A DNA stretch of 33,683 nt from Candidatus Brocadiia bacterium. Its GTDB lineage: Bacteria > Planctomycetota > Brocadiia > SM23-32. The stretch is taken from positions 1-33,683 of the forward strand of contig JBKHIT010000057.1 in NCBI GenBank assembly GCA_046538485.1. The letters are read 5' to 3'. Below are positions 14,472 to 27,637 of the stretch, piece by piece; the first letter of the stretch is position 1, and every line of letters begins with the position of its first letter. The notes under the pieces are model-generated. The model was not told the origin of the DNA and did no database searches. It saw nothing but the letters and a program-made list of their open reading frames with translations. The translations under genes and the position numbers were made by a program.

Positions 14472-15437
14472 TCAATCCGATTCTTCATTTCGGGCCCTTG
14501 TGACGGTCATTAAATTTTCCAATTTTTCCTGCGCGATCCGTTCGATTGCCCCATCCGCACGCAAAACCCATCCTTTCTGATCCATACCCTTATCCTTTTG
14601 CAATATGCAGACAGCTATTTCTGTTCTCTCGCAGCCTTTTGATCCCCGGTCGCACAACATACAGGAAATGTTTTTGTCTTTTGAGGACGAGTAGTGCAGG
14701 GATTCCTTATCCAAATATTCCGCAAAAAGGTCCTGCAAATTCTTGGGATAACAGGCGTGTTGAGATCTGTACACTTCGATTGCCTGCTGGATTTTTCTCA
14801 GGTTTTCTTTGCAGAAGATCTGGCCGCCTCGCACAGCTCCCCGGGCACCCAAAGGGCCAGCATTTAACCAACCTGCGATCGGGGCCAGCACAACAACACT
14901 CACACAGAGGACCGCTCCTCTGTGACCGCTCGAGCGTATTAACCCCATCCCAAGAACCGCTATAGCAACAGCCAGAACAGCGGCGGACCAGTGCCACAGA
15001 GCAAACGGGACAACCAGAGCACTTGCAACGGGGAGCGGGTGAACACCCTCCCATTCCAGCAGAGCCATTAGATTCCCCAAAATCGGAATGTGGAAAGCGG
15101 CCGGCGCTTTATCCTGCCGACTTTCGTTCACAGTTACCAACAATTTACATACACCGATGTCAACAAAATCGCCGTCCTTGAGCTCAGCACGCCGTACTTT
15201 TTTCCCATTGACCAGCATGCCATTGTGAGAGCCAAGATCTTCGACAACACACCCTGTATTTTCGTTCTTAAATCGCAGATGACGACGCGAAACGGACTTC
15301 TCAGGAACTCTTATATCGCAACCTTTAGCCCGCCCCACAATAACACCTTCACTTGGAATACGAACGCGCCGATCTCCCATTTCCGGCCCCATAACATCGA
15401 GCCAGCATTCCGTTTCACTATTTTTTGCTTGCCCCAT
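14472..15437 (-). CDS. FHA domain membrane protein with C-terminal pseudopilin-like domain
   Basis: IVGR, SVSRRH, DLGSHNG FHA motifs; hydrophobic central region; C-terminal CKENLRKIQQAIEVY...YPKNLQDL. ATG 15437 follows GGGAG (ORF track starts at TTG 15455). Confidence 0.8.
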   Translation of the reverse strand: MGQAKNSETECWLDVMGPEMGDRRVRIPSEGVIVGRAKGCDIRVPEKSVSRRHLRFKNENTGCVVEDLGSHNGMLVNGKKVRRAELKDGDFVDIGVCKLLVTVNESRQDKAPAAFHIPILGNLMALLEWEGVHPLPVASALVVPFALWHWSAAVLAVAIAVLGMGLIRSSGHRGAVLCVSVVVLAPIAGWLNAGPLGARGAVRGGQIFCKENLRKIQQAIEVYRSQHACYPKNLQDLFAEYLDKESLHYSSSKDKNISCMLCDRGSKGCERTEIAVCILQKDKGMDQKGWVLRADGAIERIAQEKLENLMTVTRARNEESD

Positions 15438-15466
15438 GTACAAGCTCCCAGACAACGAGTCATTTC

Positions 15467-16318
15467 CTATCGAAGTCCACGACTCTTTCTGAGCATAAAA
15501 AGTTTCGTTTCCACAATGCGGGCCGAACCAAATCGCTTGGAGGAATCTTTCGCTAACGCCCTCATAATCAGTGATTCAAATTCTTCAGAGCAGTATATAC
15601 CTTTCTTAGAAGGTGGTATAGGTTCAACATTGAGACTCCTCGTCATTCTCGTCGTTCGAGCTGCGCCCGCAAACAATTTCTTCCCTACCACCATTTCATA
15701 AAAAAGCACTCCCAAAGAATAAACGTCCCCCCTGTATGAAGCCCTGCCGTCTTTGATCATCTCAGGCGCCATGTAACTGGGAGTTCCAACACGATCTTTG
15801 GGCAATCTGGCTCCCATTGGCGCTGTCAGGCCAAAATCAATCAACTTCGGCTCGTTGTTACCATCGAGCAAAATATTGTCAAGGCATATATCCCGGTGGA
15901 CGAATCGTCGCTCGTGGAGTTCTGCAACGGCAGAAACGATTCGGCTCGCCAGCTTGATAAGTTCATTTTCATGAATCCTGTGCCGGCAGGGCTCAAGATG
16001 ATTGGTGAGTTTAGACTCCAAAAGCTCCATGGCCACCCACTCGGGTTTATCACCGCTATGATCGATACAGTTCACGATATTAGGATGAGCAAAACTTTCC
16101 AGAAGACGCCCCTCCCAGGGAATACCAGTGCGTTCTGTCATCCTGGATGCAAATTGTTTGCCTTTTTCGGTCAGAGCTTTAACGGCCAAAGTCTTCCCCG
16201 AATCCTCATTGTGAGCCCTGTAGACCCGCGAGAAAGGTCCGTCATAAATCAATTCATCGAATCCATACCCCGCAACCCCTTTTGTGTCTGCACCTATTTC
16301 TCTTAACCACCTGAACAT
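15467..16318 (-). CDS. Hanks-type serine/threonine protein kinase (catalytic domain only)
   Basis: AVK, HPNIV, AME, HRDICLDNIL, LIDFG, GTPSYMAPE, GDVYSLGV. Confidence 0.93.
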   Translation of the reverse strand: MFRWLREIGADTKGVAGYGFDELIYDGPFSRVYRAHNEDSGKTLAVKALTEKGKQFASRMTERTGIPWEGRLLESFAHPNIVNCIDHSGDKPEWVAMELLESKLTNHLEPCRHRIHENELIKLASRIVSAVAELHERRFVHRDICLDNILLDGNNEPKLIDFGLTAPMGARLPKDRVGTPSYMAPEMIKDGRASYRGDVYSLGVLFYEMVVGKKLFAGAARTTRMTRSLNVEPIPPSKKGIYCSEEFESLIMRALAKDSSKRFGSARIVETKLFMLRKSRGLR

Positions 16319-19866: not shown

Positions 19867-20928
19867 TTACATCCACTTTTTCTTCTTGAAATACATTACC
19901 ATTAATCCTGCCATTAAAGCCATCAGAATCAGCACGGCAGGATACCCATATGACCAATCCAATTCGGGCATGTTTTTAAAATTCATACCGTAGACTCCAG
20001 CGACGAAAGTGAGGGGGATAAAAACCGTGGCAATGATCGTCAAGACTTTCATAACTTCGTTCATCCGATTGCTTACGGTCGTCATGTAAAGATCCATCAG
20101 CCCGGAAATCATGTCCCGAAAGCTTTCGACGGTTTCGATCAACTGCACACAGTGGTCGTAGACATCGCGGAAATAAACTCTGGTGGATTCGCTGATCAGT
20201 TCACACTCGTTCCGATCCAGACTGTTGAGAGCTTCCCGCAATGGCCATATGGACTTCCGTAGCACGATCAGGTCGCGCTTGTGAGATTGTATACGCTGCA
20301 ATATTCTCGGATTCGCGTCTTCGATGACCTCTTCTTCCATTTCCTCAATTCGATGGGCTTTCCGCTCAAGAACCAAGAAATATCCGTCGACAATTCGATC
20401 GATCAAGGCATACAAAAGATAATCGCTTCCCGCGGCTCGAATTCGGCCCTTCTGCTGGCGTATCCTTTCCCGCACCGGATCGAAAACGTCCCCTTTTTCT
20501 TCCTCGAAAGAAATCACCGTCTGTCCGGTCAGAATGAAACTCACCTGTTTTACCTGGAGTTCATCGTCGTGCTGTTTGTGCCAGAGCATGTTCAGCCGTA
20601 CGTAAAGATAATCTTCGTAATCTTCGCTCTTAGGCCGCTCCCCCGTGCTGATAATATCCTCCTGTACAAGAGGATGTATGCCAAAGACCTCGCTCAGTTC
20701 AGCCACCTGGGCGGGATCGGCGACACTGTCGATATTGATCCATGTAATCGACTCACTATCCTTGTATTGGGCACAGTCAGACGACGATCCGGCTTCCTTT
20801 TCCTCGAATTTTTCTGCCGTGTAATCAAGAACAGAAACTAGCCCGGGGGTCCCGCGTACAGAACGCGCTTGCTCTCCTATACCCGGTGGCTCTCCTGGAG
20901 ACTCAATCTGTCGGCGAGGCAACCGCAT
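19867..20928 (-). CDS. corA: Magnesium/cobalt transporter CorA
   Basis: WINI, FGIHPLVQEDI, RPK.E.Y, NRMNEVMKVLT, FIPLTFVAGVYGMNF..MPEL (GMN motif), two C-terminal TM helices. Confidence 0.96.
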   Translation of the reverse strand: MRLPRRQIESPGEPPGIGEQARSVRGTPGLVSVLDYTAEKFEEKEAGSSSDCAQYKDSESITWINIDSVADPAQVAELSEVFGIHPLVQEDIISTGERPKSEDYEDYLYVRLNMLWHKQHDDELQVKQVSFILTGQTVISFEEEKGDVFDPVRERIRQQKGRIRAAGSDYLLYALIDRIVDGYFLVLERKAHRIEEMEEEVIEDANPRILQRIQSHKRDLIVLRKSIWPLREALNSLDRNECELISESTRVYFRDVYDHCVQLIETVESFRDMISGLMDLYMTTVSNRMNEVMKVLTIIATVFIPLTFVAGVYGMNFKNMPELDWSYGYPAVLILMALMAGLMVMYFKKKKWM

Positions 20929-23657: not shown

Positions 23658-26336
23658 ATGATTTCCAATACCAGAAATAACTGTCCAAATTCAGATAATC
23701 CCTCTGATATCCGTTATCAGATAGAATCGGATATGAATCTTGAGGGACAGTACGAAAAATGCGTCTTGAACGTAACTGATGATGCTATTTTCTCTGTATG
23801 CGAGTGCGGTGTCGAAGAAAAAGTCGCGCTTTCGAGTGTTGAGTACGTCGTTTGCGCAGAATATGTCGGCAACGGACGCCTCGAAGCCCATCTTAAAAGT
23901 GGACGGCAGGTGCCGTTAATCCGGTATTCAAAAACACTCTCCGACAAATACGAAAAAGCTGAGGACGAGATCAACAAGCTTCTTGGCCGAGAAATCACCC
24001 AGGATGAGCGTGAAAAACAGCACGAACAAGAAGGGCCCAGTGAGACAAAGCTTACTTACCGGTGTCCGAACTGCGGCTATCCCCTCAAACATCAAGGCGA
24101 CGTCTGCCCCAGATGCGTCGATGTTAAGTCGATGATCTGGCGTCTGGTCAAGTACCTCCGTCCATACTGGTTTGAGACAGCGGTCGGCTTGACTCTTGCG
24201 CTGATCCTGGCCACAAGCCAGCTGATTCCGGGATTACTCTTACAGCGAATGATTGACGGCCCGCTACGCCTCCCCTCAGTTCCAACAGTGATCGAAGAGA
24301 AAAAAGTCCGCGAGGGAACCCCCGAAAGCCAGTTTCTAAGCGAAAAGGTATACCGTAAAGCTCAGAAGCACCAGGTACCCGTAGAAGCACTGCACGGGAC
24401 AGGGACGCGGGGGTTGATAACCGGTTCAGACCTGAATGATTACCTTAAAAAATCGGACGTATTTGCAACGCCTGACGCCCAGGTTTTGGCTTATCGTAAC
24501 AAAATCCACCCGGAACAAATTTCAAAACGCAATGCCAACGGCAAGATCACAACAGATATTGTGCAGGCTTACCTGAACGACATTGAGAATCTTAACATCA
24601 CGCCGCTTGCCCGCACCTGGGCATTCCATACCGGGATGGATCTCAGCACCGTTGAAACGCCCGCCGACACCGGTTTGATCACAAAAGACGAGATTGTGAA
24701 TGCCGGGAAACCCGGGCGATTACAAATGGTGCTTCTGTTGGTGGGTGCCCTGCTGATCACCTTTCTGGTGCGTTCGCTTATCGTCTGGGGCCGGGGAAAT
24801 ATAATGGGATCCCTGGGTGCAAAACTTATGCATGATATCAGGACTCACCTTTACAGCGCTCTGCAACGATTAAGCCTTTCGTTCTACGACCGCGAGCATA
24901 CCGGCCGTATCATGTCGCGGGTAACAAAAGATGCGACAGTGCTGCGTAACTTTATCGTCCAGGGCCTGCAACGAATTGTCATCTACAGTTTAACACTCGT
25001 CGTGCTCGCTATTACCATGATTGGTTTTCACTGGAAACTCGCCTTGCTGACTTTGCTGCCCATGCCCCTGATGGCAATCGGGACTTATCTTTTCGCGCGG
25101 CGGGCTCGTAATCTCTATCGCCGGATACGTCGAAAAGGTGCCACTCTATTGAAAACTGTAAAGGAAACCGTATCGGGAGTGAGCATCGTCAAGGCCTTTG
25201 CACAGGAAGAACGCGAACTTGACACATTCCGCGAAAAGAACCGGGATCATCTGGATGCCACGGTTGAATCCGTAAAACTCAAAAGCTTGTTTCAGCCCGC
25301 CGTGATATTTCTCACGGCTGTCGGGACTTTGATCATCTACTCCTACGGCGGATACCTGGTCATCAAAGGCGGTCCCGACGGACTGACCGTTGGCGTGCTG
25401 GTGATGTTCAACGCTTTCATGGCCCAGTTCTACACCCCGGTCCGCCAGTTATCCCAGCTGACAGACATTTTCCAGCAGGCCGCCGTCTCGGCCGAGCGTA
25501 TTTTCAGCATCATTGATACGCCGTCGGAAGTCGCCGACTCCGAAAGCCCTTACGTTCCCGAAAAGATCGAAGGGCATGTTGTTCTGGACAATGTTGATTT
25601 CTCTTACGAAAAAGGAGAACGTGTCCTCAAAGATATTAATTTGGAAGTGAAACCGGGCGAAATCATCGGCCTGGTGGGCCAGACTGGCTCAGGGAAAAGC
25701 ACGATCGTCAAACTGCTTGCTCGTTTCTACGACCCTGAAAATGGCCGTATTATTCTCGATGGACATGATTTGCGGGAAATGCGGCTGAAATCGCTCCGGG
25801 AAAATATCGGAATGGTTTTGCAAGAAACCTTCCTGTTCACAGGAACGATTCGCGAAAATATCGCCTATGGGCGTCCCGAAGCCAGCAATCAAGAAATCAT
25901 TGAGGCCGCGCGGGCCGCAAACGCTCACGATTTTATCATGGATCTGCCGGACGCTTACGATACTTATACTGGCGAACGTGGTGTTGGATTGTCCGGAGGA
26001 GAAAAACAACGTGTTGCCATTGCAAGAGCCATTCTAAAAGATCCCGCTATCCTTATCCTGGATGAAGCCACTTCGGCTGTGGATACTGCCACCGAAGCCA
26101 TGATCCAGGATGCTCTGGATAATTTGATGGAGGGACGCACAACGTTTGCCATCGCCCACCGTCTTTCAACCCTTCAGAACGCCAACCGGTTGGTAGTTCT
26201 TGAAAACGGAGAAATTGCGGAGATGGGTACCCATGACGAATTGCTCGAGAAAGAAGACGGAATTTACCGTAACCTTGTTGAAATCCAGGATTTACTTTCT
26301 GGTTCCAAATCGCTGCAAAAAGAATCGGCAGCATAA
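23658..26336 (+). CDS. Fused ABC exporter (TMD plus NBD) with N-terminal extension, zinc ribbon and three inserted E3-binding-like repeats
   Basis: CPNC...CPRC before TM1; ABC_membrane motifs (LSLSFYD...TGRIMSR, VKAFAQE, SAERIF); NBD GQTGSGKS, LSGGEKQR, ILILDEATS, IAHRLST. Confidence 0.93.
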   Translation: MISNTRNNCPNSDNPSDIRYQIESDMNLEGQYEKCVLNVTDDAIFSVCECGVEEKVALSSVEYVVCAEYVGNGRLEAHLKSGRQVPLIRYSKTLSDKYEKAEDEINKLLGREITQDEREKQHEQEGPSETKLTYRCPNCGYPLKHQGDVCPRCVDVKSMIWRLVKYLRPYWFETAVGLTLALILATSQLIPGLLLQRMIDGPLRLPSVPTVIEEKKVREGTPESQFLSEKVYRKAQKHQVPVEALHGTGTRGLITGSDLNDYLKKSDVFATPDAQVLAYRNKIHPEQISKRNANGKITTDIVQAYLNDIENLNITPLARTWAFHTGMDLSTVETPADTGLITKDEIVNAGKPGRLQMVLLLVGALLITFLVRSLIVWGRGNIMGSLGAKLMHDIRTHLYSALQRLSLSFYDREHTGRIMSRVTKDATVLRNFIVQGLQRIVIYSLTLVVLAITMIGFHWKLALLTLLPMPLMAIGTYLFARRARNLYRRIRRKGATLLKTVKETVSGVSIVKAFAQEERELDTFREKNRDHLDATVESVKLKSLFQPAVIFLTAVGTLIIYSYGGYLVIKGGPDGLTVGVLVMFNAFMAQFYTPVRQLSQLTDIFQQAAVSAERIFSIIDTPSEVADSESPYVPEKIEGHVVLDNVDFSYEKGERVLKDINLEVKPGEIIGLVGQTGSGKSTIVKLLARFYDPENGRIILDGHDLREMRLKSLRENIGMVLQETFLFTGTIRENIAYGRPEASNQEIIEAARAANAHDFIMDLPDAYDTYTGERGVGLSGGEKQRVAIARAILKDPAILILDEATSAVDTATEAMIQDALDNLMEGRTTFAIAHRLSTLQNANRLVVLENGEIAEMGTHDELLEKEDGIYRNLVEIQDLLSGSKSLQKESAA

Positions 26337-26348
26337 AGGAGAAGAGCC

Positions 26349-26882
26349 ATGGCTACCACACTTGCCGGTAGCTTGATGTTGCAACAGAAGGAATATGAGG
26401 ATTTTTGCCCCAGAACCGACCGGGTAACCCTCCGGCGACCCGATGAGGGCAAAAATATATTGCTGAAAATTAACGATGAAACACACGAAATTGGACGGAT
26501 TGCCAGCGCCTTTCCGCTTTCATCCGCCATGGAAAACGTAGCATTCTTCACCACCGAAGGTGAAGAAATCGGAGTCATGAAAAAGGTGGAGAGACTCGAC
26601 CCCGAATCGTTCCGCATTCTTCGTGAGGAACTGGAGAAAGCATATTTCATGCCTGCCATTCTCGCGGTTGAGGACATTAACGAACATCTCGGCGTCGAGG
26701 AATGGGGAGTGCGCACCGATAAAGGTCAGCGAACCTTCCAGGTGCGAGACCCCCGCCGAAACGTCCGCAAAATCGGCGAAAGCCGAATTTTGATTAAGGA
26801 CGTTGATGGCAACCGCTACGAAGTTAAAGACTGGAAGCGGATGGACCGCACCAGCTTTTCATACCTGATGCAATATGTCTAA
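26349..26882 (+). CDS. DUF1854 family protein
   Basis: AFPLS...VAF...GEEIG...L..ES..IL.EEL..AYFMP.I..V......G..EW.V.TDKG.RTF...ILIKDVDGNRYE pattern; AAGGAG RBS; 12 nt after the exporter stop. Confidence 0.8.
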   Translation: MATTLAGSLMLQQKEYEDFCPRTDRVTLRRPDEGKNILLKINDETHEIGRIASAFPLSSAMENVAFFTTEGEEIGVMKKVERLDPESFRILREELEKAYFMPAILAVEDINEHLGVEEWGVRTDKGQRTFQVRDPRRNVRKIGESRILIKDVDGNRYEVKDWKRMDRTSFSYLMQYV

Positions 26883-26983: not shown

Positions 26984-27637
26984 ATGCTGTACGATTTCCA
27001 TACACACACGTATATGTCGGATGGCGTTCTGGGATTTGCCGAACTTGCGCGACGCTGCCAGAAACTGGGCTACAACGGGCTCACCATCGCAGATCATTGT
27101 GATAGCGCCAATCTCGAAATAACCGTTAAACAAACAGTCTTGTTCTGCCAGAGAGCCTCCGGGCATTACGGCTCAATGATCCTTTTGCCCGGTTGCGAAA
27201 TAACCCATTCGCCGCCTGATCTGATTCCCTCCCTCGTCGAAAAGGCCCGCGAATTAGGGGCCAAAATGGTCCTCGTGCACGGCGAAACCATCGTCGAGCC
27301 TGTGATCCCGGGAACCAACAAGGCGGCCATTAAAGCCGGGGCTGACGTGCTGGCTCACCCCGGCCTTATCGAAACCGAAGACGCCGCTCTCGCCGCGGAA
27401 TCGGGAACGTTTCTCGAAATCAGCGGCCGCAAAGGACATTGCTACACGAACGGACATGTCGCCAAAATCGCTCGGGAAACGGGCACCTCAATATCATTTG
27501 GATCCGACGGACACCAACCCGGCGATTACCCGGCCCCGGAACAAGCCAACCGTATCTTGAAAGGTGCCGGACTCGACGACTCCGAGATCGAAACCATTTT
27601 CGCTTCAATGGCAAAAATCTTCGCTAAACAGCGGTAG
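26984..27637 (+). CDS. PHP domain phosphoesterase (histidinol-phosphatase-like)
   Basis: DFHTHT..SDG, IADH, GCEITH, VHGET, LAHPG, GSDGH. Confidence 0.88.
   Translation: MLYDFHTHTYMSDGVLGFAELARRCQKLGYNGLTIADHCDSANLEITVKQTVLFCQRASGHYGSMILLPGCEITHSPPDLIPSLVEKARELGAKMVLVHGETIVEPVIPGTNKAAIKAGADVLAHPGLIETEDAALAAESGTFLEISGRKGHCYTNGHVAKIARETGTSISFGSDGHQPGDYPAPEQANRILKGAGLDDSEIETIFASMAKIFAKQR

Follow-up and report, generated by a model that had tools for sequence, protein, structure and literature searches.

In 2-oxoacid dehydrogenase complexes, the peripheral subunit-binding domain (PSBD) is a docking module that normally works inside the cell; in the E2 subunits, it sits between the lipoyl and the catalytic domains. 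ATP-binding cassette (ABC) systems of type VII (MacB, FtsX, LolCDE) have a large periplasmic domain between transmembrane helices 1 and 2 (TM1 and TM2), with which they hold their partners. A folded domain between the same two helices is also present in a type IV exporter, BmrD of the Bacillus subtilis pair BmrCD (7M33): this extracellular domain, which is mainly β-stranded, consists of two subdomains, and belongs to one subunit of the heterodimer, caps the gate and moves ATP-dependently (10.1101/2021.03.13.435271). A further family of ABC proteins, those partnered with DUF1854, shows cofitness with cyanophycin-synthetase-like genes, from which it was proposed that they export an amino-acid polymer and that DUF1854 is one of the subunits (10.1101/072470). 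Here we describe a DUF1854-partnered ABC half-transporter gene (P0001; 23658..26336, + strand) that encodes three PSBD folds between TM1 and TM2. It lies in a stretch of 33,683 nucleotides, hereafter the window, which comprises positions 1 to 33,683 of contig JBKHIT010000057.1 from a Candidatus Brocadiia bacterium (assembly GCA_046538485.1).

Three PSBD folds between TM1 and TM2

Along the 892-residue protein, the order is a PH-like (pleckstrin homology) domain, a four-cysteine zinc ribbon, TM1, a 148-residue insert, TM2-TM6, and a nucleotide-binding domain (NBD), all encoded on the + strand. The insert (residues 205-352; 24270..24713), a short helix followed by the three PSBD folds, separates TM1 (residues ~171-199; 24168..24254), which was located by hydropathy and aligns with TM1 of an insert-free relative, P0017, from TM2 (residues ~351-380 by hydropathy). 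An earlier note on this DNA, made from the letters and translated reading frames, had described an insert of about 150 residues with three repeats at a spacing of 43-44 residues, and both figures hold: the repeat strings that it singled out start at F226, F269, and N313, 43 and 44 residues apart, and together cover residues 226-349 (24333-24704). As delimited here, repeat 1 comprises residues 224-268 (24327..24461), repeat 2 residues 269-311 (24462..24590), and repeat 3 residues 312-352 (24591..24713).

That the insert consists of three abutting PSBD folds, 43-44 residues apart, is confirmed by score and by fold. The Pfam E3_binding profile (PF02817) matches residues 215-361, searched alone, with 29.3 bits and an E value of 1e-6 (cut-off, 23.7 bits); it is found at E ≤ 0.01 in 13 of the 16 aligned family members (best E, 1.1e-27), and precomputed PF02817 matches exist for nine of 14 database homologues. 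A six-frame PF02817 search of the genome itself gave a list of two places elsewhere, in which this insert does not appear. Searched with phmmer against the PDB, the insert hits five chains, every one an E2 PSBD (E 0.23-1.1). In an HMMER search of 1.84 billion representatives, seven proteins are found at E ≤ 0.001: one is a family member (P0012; E 4.4e-18) and five contain one to three Pfam E3_binding domains, a complete E2 with three among them; the seventh, a low-complexity repeat protein without E3_binding, was discarded as a false positive. All ten structural neighbors of the insert in the ESM Atlas carry PF02817.

An AlphaFold2 (AF2) model of the insert, built with a 15-row family alignment, has a mean predicted local distance difference test score (pLDDT) of 92.8 and a predicted template-modeling score (pTM) of 0.84; it is all-helical, with seven helices and no strand of at least three residues. 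When this model is compared with 48,161 PDB representatives by VIA-align, ranks 1-10 are all PSBDs of E2 or the E3-binding protein, E3BP (Z 5.6-3.7; root-mean-square deviation, rmsd, 1.0-2.7), aligned over their whole chains on model residues 26-69, which correspond to repeat 1, and 113-152, which correspond to repeat 3; the Z scores are modest because the PSBD is tiny. Repeat 1 is best represented by 3rnm_F (Z 5.6, rmsd 1.0, 43/43 residues) and repeat 3 by 2eq9_C (Z 4.6, rmsd 1.4, 40/40 residues). Foldseek gives no PDB match at E ≤ 0.001, and its low-rmsd rows are filled by PSBD chains; of the structural check that the earlier note had proposed, AlphaFold plus Foldseek, the confident model and the PSBD assignment (through VIA-align) were thus obtained, and a significant Foldseek match was not. 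For repeat 2, whose G-x-G turn is degenerate in this protein, the support comes from profiles: hhalign relates it to repeat 1 with a probability of 97.3% (E 7e-11, using repeat blocks of 15 homologues), known PSBDs are matched by its hidden Markov model (HMM) with as much as 31.8 bits, and it is colinear with an E2 PSBD. The insert and the PSBDs of E2 and E3BP (PF02817; 3rnm_F, 1w85_I, 2eq9_C) therefore have in common a fold of about 40 residues and sequence homology, so that the identification of the repeats as PSBDs, suggested from their consensus, is borne out by Pfam, VIA-align, and the family HMMs alike. The pTM further suggests that the three linker-less repeats form one compact body.

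On which side of the membrane does this body lie? As judged by homology, the protein is a type IV (Sav1866/MsbA-type) ABC exporter, with a six-helix domain and an NBD on one chain. We aligned it with 14 database homologues (863-902 residues) and P0017 (765 residues). Compared with P0017, in which the loop from TM1 to TM2 has about 30 residues, residues ~205-352 are cleanly inserted; P0017, in turn, aligns with residues 2-576 of Sav1866 (2hyd_A; E 2.3e-112). Because this alignment begins at chain residue 2, the type IV fold runs from TM1 on and the insert falls into the first extracytoplasmic loop, where it had been placed before. From the established topology of Sav1866-type exporters we infer that the insert is periplasmic. 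The PH-like domain, the zinc ribbon, and the NBD all belong in the cytoplasm, which fits an outward-facing loop 1, and residues 205-352 contain no hydrophobic stretch (maximum over a 19-residue window, 0.36, versus at least 1.3 in the TM segments).

Origin of the insert from E2

Where does a cytoplasmic docking module in an exporter loop come from? The genome encodes an E2 of its own, a 482-residue open reading frame (ORF; L096:799-2244, - strand, contig C143) with a lipoyl domain, two E3_binding stretches, and an acyltransferase core, and BLASTP aligns the insert with it at 53 bits (E 3e-13). Repeats 2 and 3 are colinear with its two abutting PSBDs: repeat 2 matches the first, and the second lacks the G-x-G turn, a loss that the colinearity includes. 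For a broader comparison, HMMs of the three repeats (R1, R2, and R3), made from 15 family members, were searched against 22 Planctomycetota E2 ORFs. In 21 of them, the best R1 and R3 matches fall on adjacent domains, 41-47 residues apart and with the R1 type first; the 22nd ORF is under the score threshold for this count. R1 reaches up to 45 bits on E2 PSBDs. R3 scores 9.7-29.7 bits on the second E2 PSBD in 21 of the 22 ORFs and 5.8 bits in the remaining one; on the PSBD proteins of other kinds in the scan, it does not exceed 7.9 bits. The better match of R2 is the first E2 domain in 17 ORFs and the second one in five. If the two E2 domains are called a and b, R1 falls on a and R3 on b in 22 of 22 ORFs, a count that is circular because a and b are defined by those best matches; what is informative is the adjacency and order of the R1 and R3 matches, together with the split of R2.

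In type, repeat 1 thus corresponds to the first E2 PSBD and repeat 3 to the second, and the 43-44-residue spacing in the insert is as tight as that of the Planctomycetota E2 pair. The simplest history consistent with these matches is that a tandem pair of the Planctomycetota type (a-b) was captured and that a was then duplicated (a-a′-b): an ancestral DUF1854-partnered exporter gene would have taken up, in its TM1-TM2 loop, a piece of an E2 gene encoding the linker-less pair, and duplication of the first unit would have produced the order a, a, b. Of the earlier suggestion that a docking fold had been recruited and triplicated, the recruitment, from E2, stands; a single module was not triplicated, since the pair existed beforehand and gained a further unit of the first type. 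We hold the anatomy of the insert and its E2 ancestry with high confidence.

Neither the donor nor a recent date is indicated. The insert has the base composition of its gene (GC 0.509 and third-position GC, GC3, 0.568, versus 0.502 and 0.547 in the rest), hence the insertion is not recent. A recent capture from the genome's own E2 was considered and is not supported, as that E2 is not the best-scoring one and GC and GC3 do not differ from the remainder of the gene.

PSBDs also occur in other arrangements. The E2 acyltransferases of the phylum themselves carry two abutting PSBDs without a flexible linker, 41-47 residues apart (21 of 22 loci). P0022 and P0023 (197-200 residues) are small stand-alone proteins that consist of two or three PSBDs and have acidic tails. 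In the ESM Atlas, E3-binding-domain proteins from Nucleocytoviricota form a cluster of 60 members, and in another cluster E3_binding is fused to ribosomal protein L20; reuse of the PSBD is therefore not limited to the exporter.

Possible roles of the PSBD module

The insert is constant in length and variable in sequence. In 15 of 15 members it has 146-148 residues, almost no cysteine, and no sign of frameshift or decay. Positions that are at least 90% conserved make up 15% of the insert (22/148), 26% of the PH-like domain, 42% of the transmembrane domain, and 66% of the NBD; the 22 in the insert are nearly all core residues (Phe, Ala, Gly, Leu, Ile, Val, or Tyr), plus D258 and Q275. The ratio of nonsynonymous to synonymous substitutions (dN/dS) is 0.42 in the insert, compared with 0.08-0.20 elsewhere in the gene, as measured in the single usable pair (G410/G411; dS 0.16), the other six of seven pairs being saturated (dS above 1.3 or undefined). 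The charge has changed as well: the mean net charges of R1, R2, and R3 are -2.5, -1.8, and -2.1, whereas the first and second E2 PSBDs average +2.9 and +0.8, in line with the divergence of basic residues that had been noticed in the repeats. Taken over the whole insert, the net charge of the members lies between -18 and +3, and it is at -4 or below in 11 of 15. Unlike the basic E2 PSBD, the PSBDs of the insert are net acidic and lack flexible Ala/Pro linkers, and they reside in a transporter loop that is predicted to be periplasmic; binding of E1 or E3 is not expected of them. Sequence comparison thus indicates that the PSBD fold is kept, that the basic face that grips E1 and E3 has probably gone, as far as net charge can tell, and that the surface is drifting. 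This apparent loss, together with the poor conservation of the surface, is why we would read the module as a cap or guide rather than as a dock for E1 or E3.

How might such a cap work? The half-transporter would act as a homodimer with one module per subunit, so that two modules flank the periplasmic exit; since TM1 runs from inside to outside, each would be on the periplasmic face, next to the point where the substrate leaves. There, the module may form a compact cap or guide at the end of the translocation path, moving with the ATP cycle and handling the emerging substrate in the way of the BmrD extracellular domain. It may additionally offer a docking surface, although E1/E3 docking would no longer be served. 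The likeness to BmrD is one of place: both are folded domains that interrupt a type IV exporter between TM1 and TM2 and, in our protein by prediction, face outward. The insert, however, is made of three helical PSBD folds, is expected on both subunits of a homodimer, and has no homology to the BmrD domain. The likeness to type VII systems is functional only: these have a four-helix transmembrane fold and other domain folds, and no type VII family appears among the Pfam matches listed (25 of 26), although our protein was not given a dedicated membership test. A two-copy complex prediction of the insert scored 0.00 against a mark of 0.42, which says nothing either way about contact between the modules. 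The role of cap or guide, argued by analogy, is tentative, and we would put it somewhat short of an even chance; the whole reading, a DUF1854-partnered exporter with an E2-derived periplasmic triple-PSBD cap or guide, we consider evenly poised between right and wrong.

Several observations weigh against that reading, some touching the identity of the module and others its purpose. Searched with the whole protein, E3_binding scores 20.5 bits, under its cut-off of 23.7, and the sole stretch that passes this model by itself is in repeat 1 (residues 235-259). The fold searches yield no separate row for repeat 2; repeat 3 is weakly similar to R1 (P 6e-4) and R2 (P 2e-3) in hhalign; and pTM is the single measure behind the compact packing of the three. 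The charge of the insert is near neutral in P0001, so the positive-inside rule does not decide its topology. An E2 in a genome of another family scores above the genome's own (43 versus 36 bits); the own-genome E2 not being closest to the insert, no particular E2 can be singled out as the donor. Evolution of the insert is two to five times as fast as that of the remaining protein, a rate that would equally suit a passenger under loose constraint. No cyanophycin synthetase was found in the genome, which is 88% complete, where the best TIGR02068 match (143.9 bits; cut-off, 850) covers just the Mur-ligase-like part of the model. Finally, no conserved periplasmic partner gene is seen near the loci that carry the insert, whose recurring neighbors were not searched for signal peptides.

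If a protein-docking fold has been retained in three copies, why not read it as a dock? The trio could be a specific platform for a separate periplasmic protein, be it an adaptor, a modifying enzyme, or the polymerase of the product. Docking is what PSBDs do by trade, the length of the insert is constant across the family, and type VII ABC systems hold partners with a periplasmic domain in the same loop, as MacB and FtsX are understood to do for MacA and EnvC. Against it, no conserved polar or charged surface residues were found apart from D258 and Q275; the net charge wanders over the range given above, and a conserved secreted neighbor is not seen, with the limit just stated on signal peptides. 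We regard this platform as rather unlikely. In a bolder form, the PSBD trio would tether a periplasmic enzyme or adaptor over the exporter exit, where the product is handed on or modified while it emerges; this is improbable in our judgment. If true, the product passing through could be the kind of amino-acid polymer that the parent family has been proposed to export, and a "swinging-arm dock" in the style of the multienzyme complexes would have been reinvented in the planctomycetal cell envelope.

Alternatively, the insert might do nothing: an E2 fragment in a permissive loop, folded but functionless, would be a tolerated passenger. It is indeed the fastest-evolving part of the protein, with the fewest conserved positions and the highest dN/dS, and relatives of the exporter occur in all 32 genomes of the order, those of non-carriers having frames without the insert. 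Yet it has stayed at 146-148 residues without frameshift or decay in all 15 members, its dN/dS remains below 1, a duplication was fixed after the capture, AF2 folds it with high confidence, and its GC and GC3 mark the insertion as old. We think a passenger doubtful. A cytoplasmic insert that still recruits E1/E3-like enzymes to the transporter would preserve the only known job of the domain; it is very improbable, given a position between TM1 and TM2 of a Sav1866-type domain whose PH-like domain, ribbon, and NBD must be cytoplasmic, the lack of any hydrophobic segment with which the insert could re-cross the membrane, and the apparent loss of the basic face. An artefact of assembly or gene calling, through a chimeric contig or an ORF fusion, is conceivable in a draft of 143 contigs with 88% completeness and 4% contamination. 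It is refuted to a negligible probability by the uninterrupted presence of the architecture in eight further genomes of four other genera, with syntenic flanks, and in 14 proteins that reached the database from several sources.

Returning to the periplasmic cap or guide, is any of this described? In the full-text literature, a search that left most subscription journals outside, we found no description of a PSBD or E3-binding domain in an ABC transporter or exporter, and the databases name these proteins, from metagenome-assembled genomes of Planctomycetota, only "ABC transporter transmembrane domain-containing protein". The fold, the E2 source, and the extracytoplasmic use of this loop-1 domain appear undescribed; the earlier note had called the architecture as a whole new to it, and this is to be narrowed insofar as BmrD already has a domain inserted at this site. 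In the same literature, DUF1854 was met in one paper. The exporter offers a clean, datable case of domain shuffling and a rare reuse of the PSBD, in which a cytoplasmic housekeeping module for docking would have been copied from E2 into an outward-facing loop, duplicated, and re-surfaced. Next to BmrD, the one case described so far, it provides a second and unrelated type IV exporter with a folded domain in its extracellular loop 1. What the module contacts could reveal the cargo of these exporters in Planctomycetota, a phylum in which the biology of the envelope remains under debate. The PSBD, tiny and ultrafast-folding, could also find use as an extracytoplasmic scaffold.

The exporter gene, its relatives, and its neighbors

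Two starts are candidates for the ABC gene, and the choice between them is ambiguous: the first ATG, at 23658, gives the 892-residue ORF, whereas the public database copy starts at M26 (23733) and has 867 residues. Among the homologues, the N-terminal tails ahead of the conserved part of the alignment are variable and unconserved. The PH-like domain (residues ~17-111; 23706..23990) is modeled by AF2 as seven strands followed by a C-terminal helix (pLDDT 83.8), and the 50 VIA-align rows listed for it are all of the PH or phosphotyrosine-binding (PTB) type (Z 9.6-7.4); phmmer with the N-terminal 170 residues finds nothing meaningful in the PDB. The zinc ribbon (C136, C139, C150, C153; 24054..24125), just ahead of TM1, has cysteines that are invariant in the family alignment and Pfam matches that are all under the cut-off. 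This N-terminal part of the DUF1854-partnered family, the PH-like domain plus the ribbon (23706-24125), has no Pfam family above cut-off. Downstream of the insert, TM2-TM6 (residues 356-595; 24723..25442) match ABC_membrane (PF00664; E 2.2e-45) over profile positions 38-274 only, the alignment beginning at position 38 because the insert splits off the part that corresponds to TM1. The NBD (residues 657-806; 25626..26075) matches ABC_tran (PF00005; E 1.8e-36).

The DUF1854 gene (26349..26882, +) begins 13 bases downstream; its product matches PF08909 with an E value of 3.8e-34 and NF052234 with 86.7 bits, under the cut-off of 150, and a phmmer search of the PDB with it gives nothing meaningful. 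The closest NCBIfam model of the ABC protein, NF052233 ("cyanophycin metabolism-associated ABC transporter"), scores 604.5 bits, under its equivalog cut-off of 880. The protein has in common with the NF052233/NF052234 family the N-terminal module, the zinc ribbon, the transmembrane domain, the NBD, and the adjacent DUF1854 gene; it differs in the 148-residue insert, in the sub-cut-off scores, and in that its genome, at the completeness given above, yielded no cyanophycin synthetase.

The insert is restricted in its distribution. It was searched in six frames in 401 sampled genomes of the phylum Planctomycetota (E ≤ 1e-5) and in all 32 genomes of the order. In the phylum sample, 14 genomes match, and an ABC-sized frame occurs in the window's own genome (G000) only: the matches of the other 13 are E2-like frames of 424-528 residues, so that none of the 400 other sampled genomes has an insert-bearing ABC gene. 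Within the order, nine of the 32 genomes, G000 included, carry the insert in frames of 894-946 residues, one cut by a contig end, and these carriers represent five genera of one family. A pattern search with the family alignment picked NBD motifs instead, returning 79 loci of generic ABC exporters, none with the insert. The N-terminal 200 residues, on the other hand, have relatives in every one of the order's 32 genomes, 47-59% identical in carriers and at most 35% in the rest, whose frames mostly have 730-930 residues and no insert; eight of the nine carrier genomes have a single gene with such a module. Absent from P0017 and present in one family of one order, the insertion is lineage-specific, as had been anticipated, and the triple-PSBD exporter is confined to one uncultured family.

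Gene order was compared in eight carrier loci and the window. The DUF1854 gene follows the ABC gene in all seven carrier loci that hold the DNA in question; in insert-free paralogues of the same bacterial family (L122-L136), it precedes the ABC gene in 14 of 21 loci examined. The position of DUF1854 is thus inverted and the carriers are a distinct subfamily, which the insert marks among the poorly understood DUF1854-partnered exporters. A RhaA-like gene, divergent, lies upstream of the ABC gene in five of the nine carrier loci. An unassigned ORF of 217 residues (26984-27637, +), located after DUF1854 and without a Pfam match at E ≤ 1e-5, recurs in four of the nine. Its N-terminal His-rich motif is one that we take to be reminiscent of PHP-type phosphoesterases. 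With a HAD hydrolase added, DUF1854, the RhaA-like gene, and this one unassigned ORF are the only recurring neighbors. Elsewhere in the window, two ordinary genes are unrelated to the exporter: one encodes an FHA-domain protein (14472-16318, -) and adjoins a Ser/Thr protein kinase gene, and the other encodes a CorA Mg2+ channel (19867-20928).

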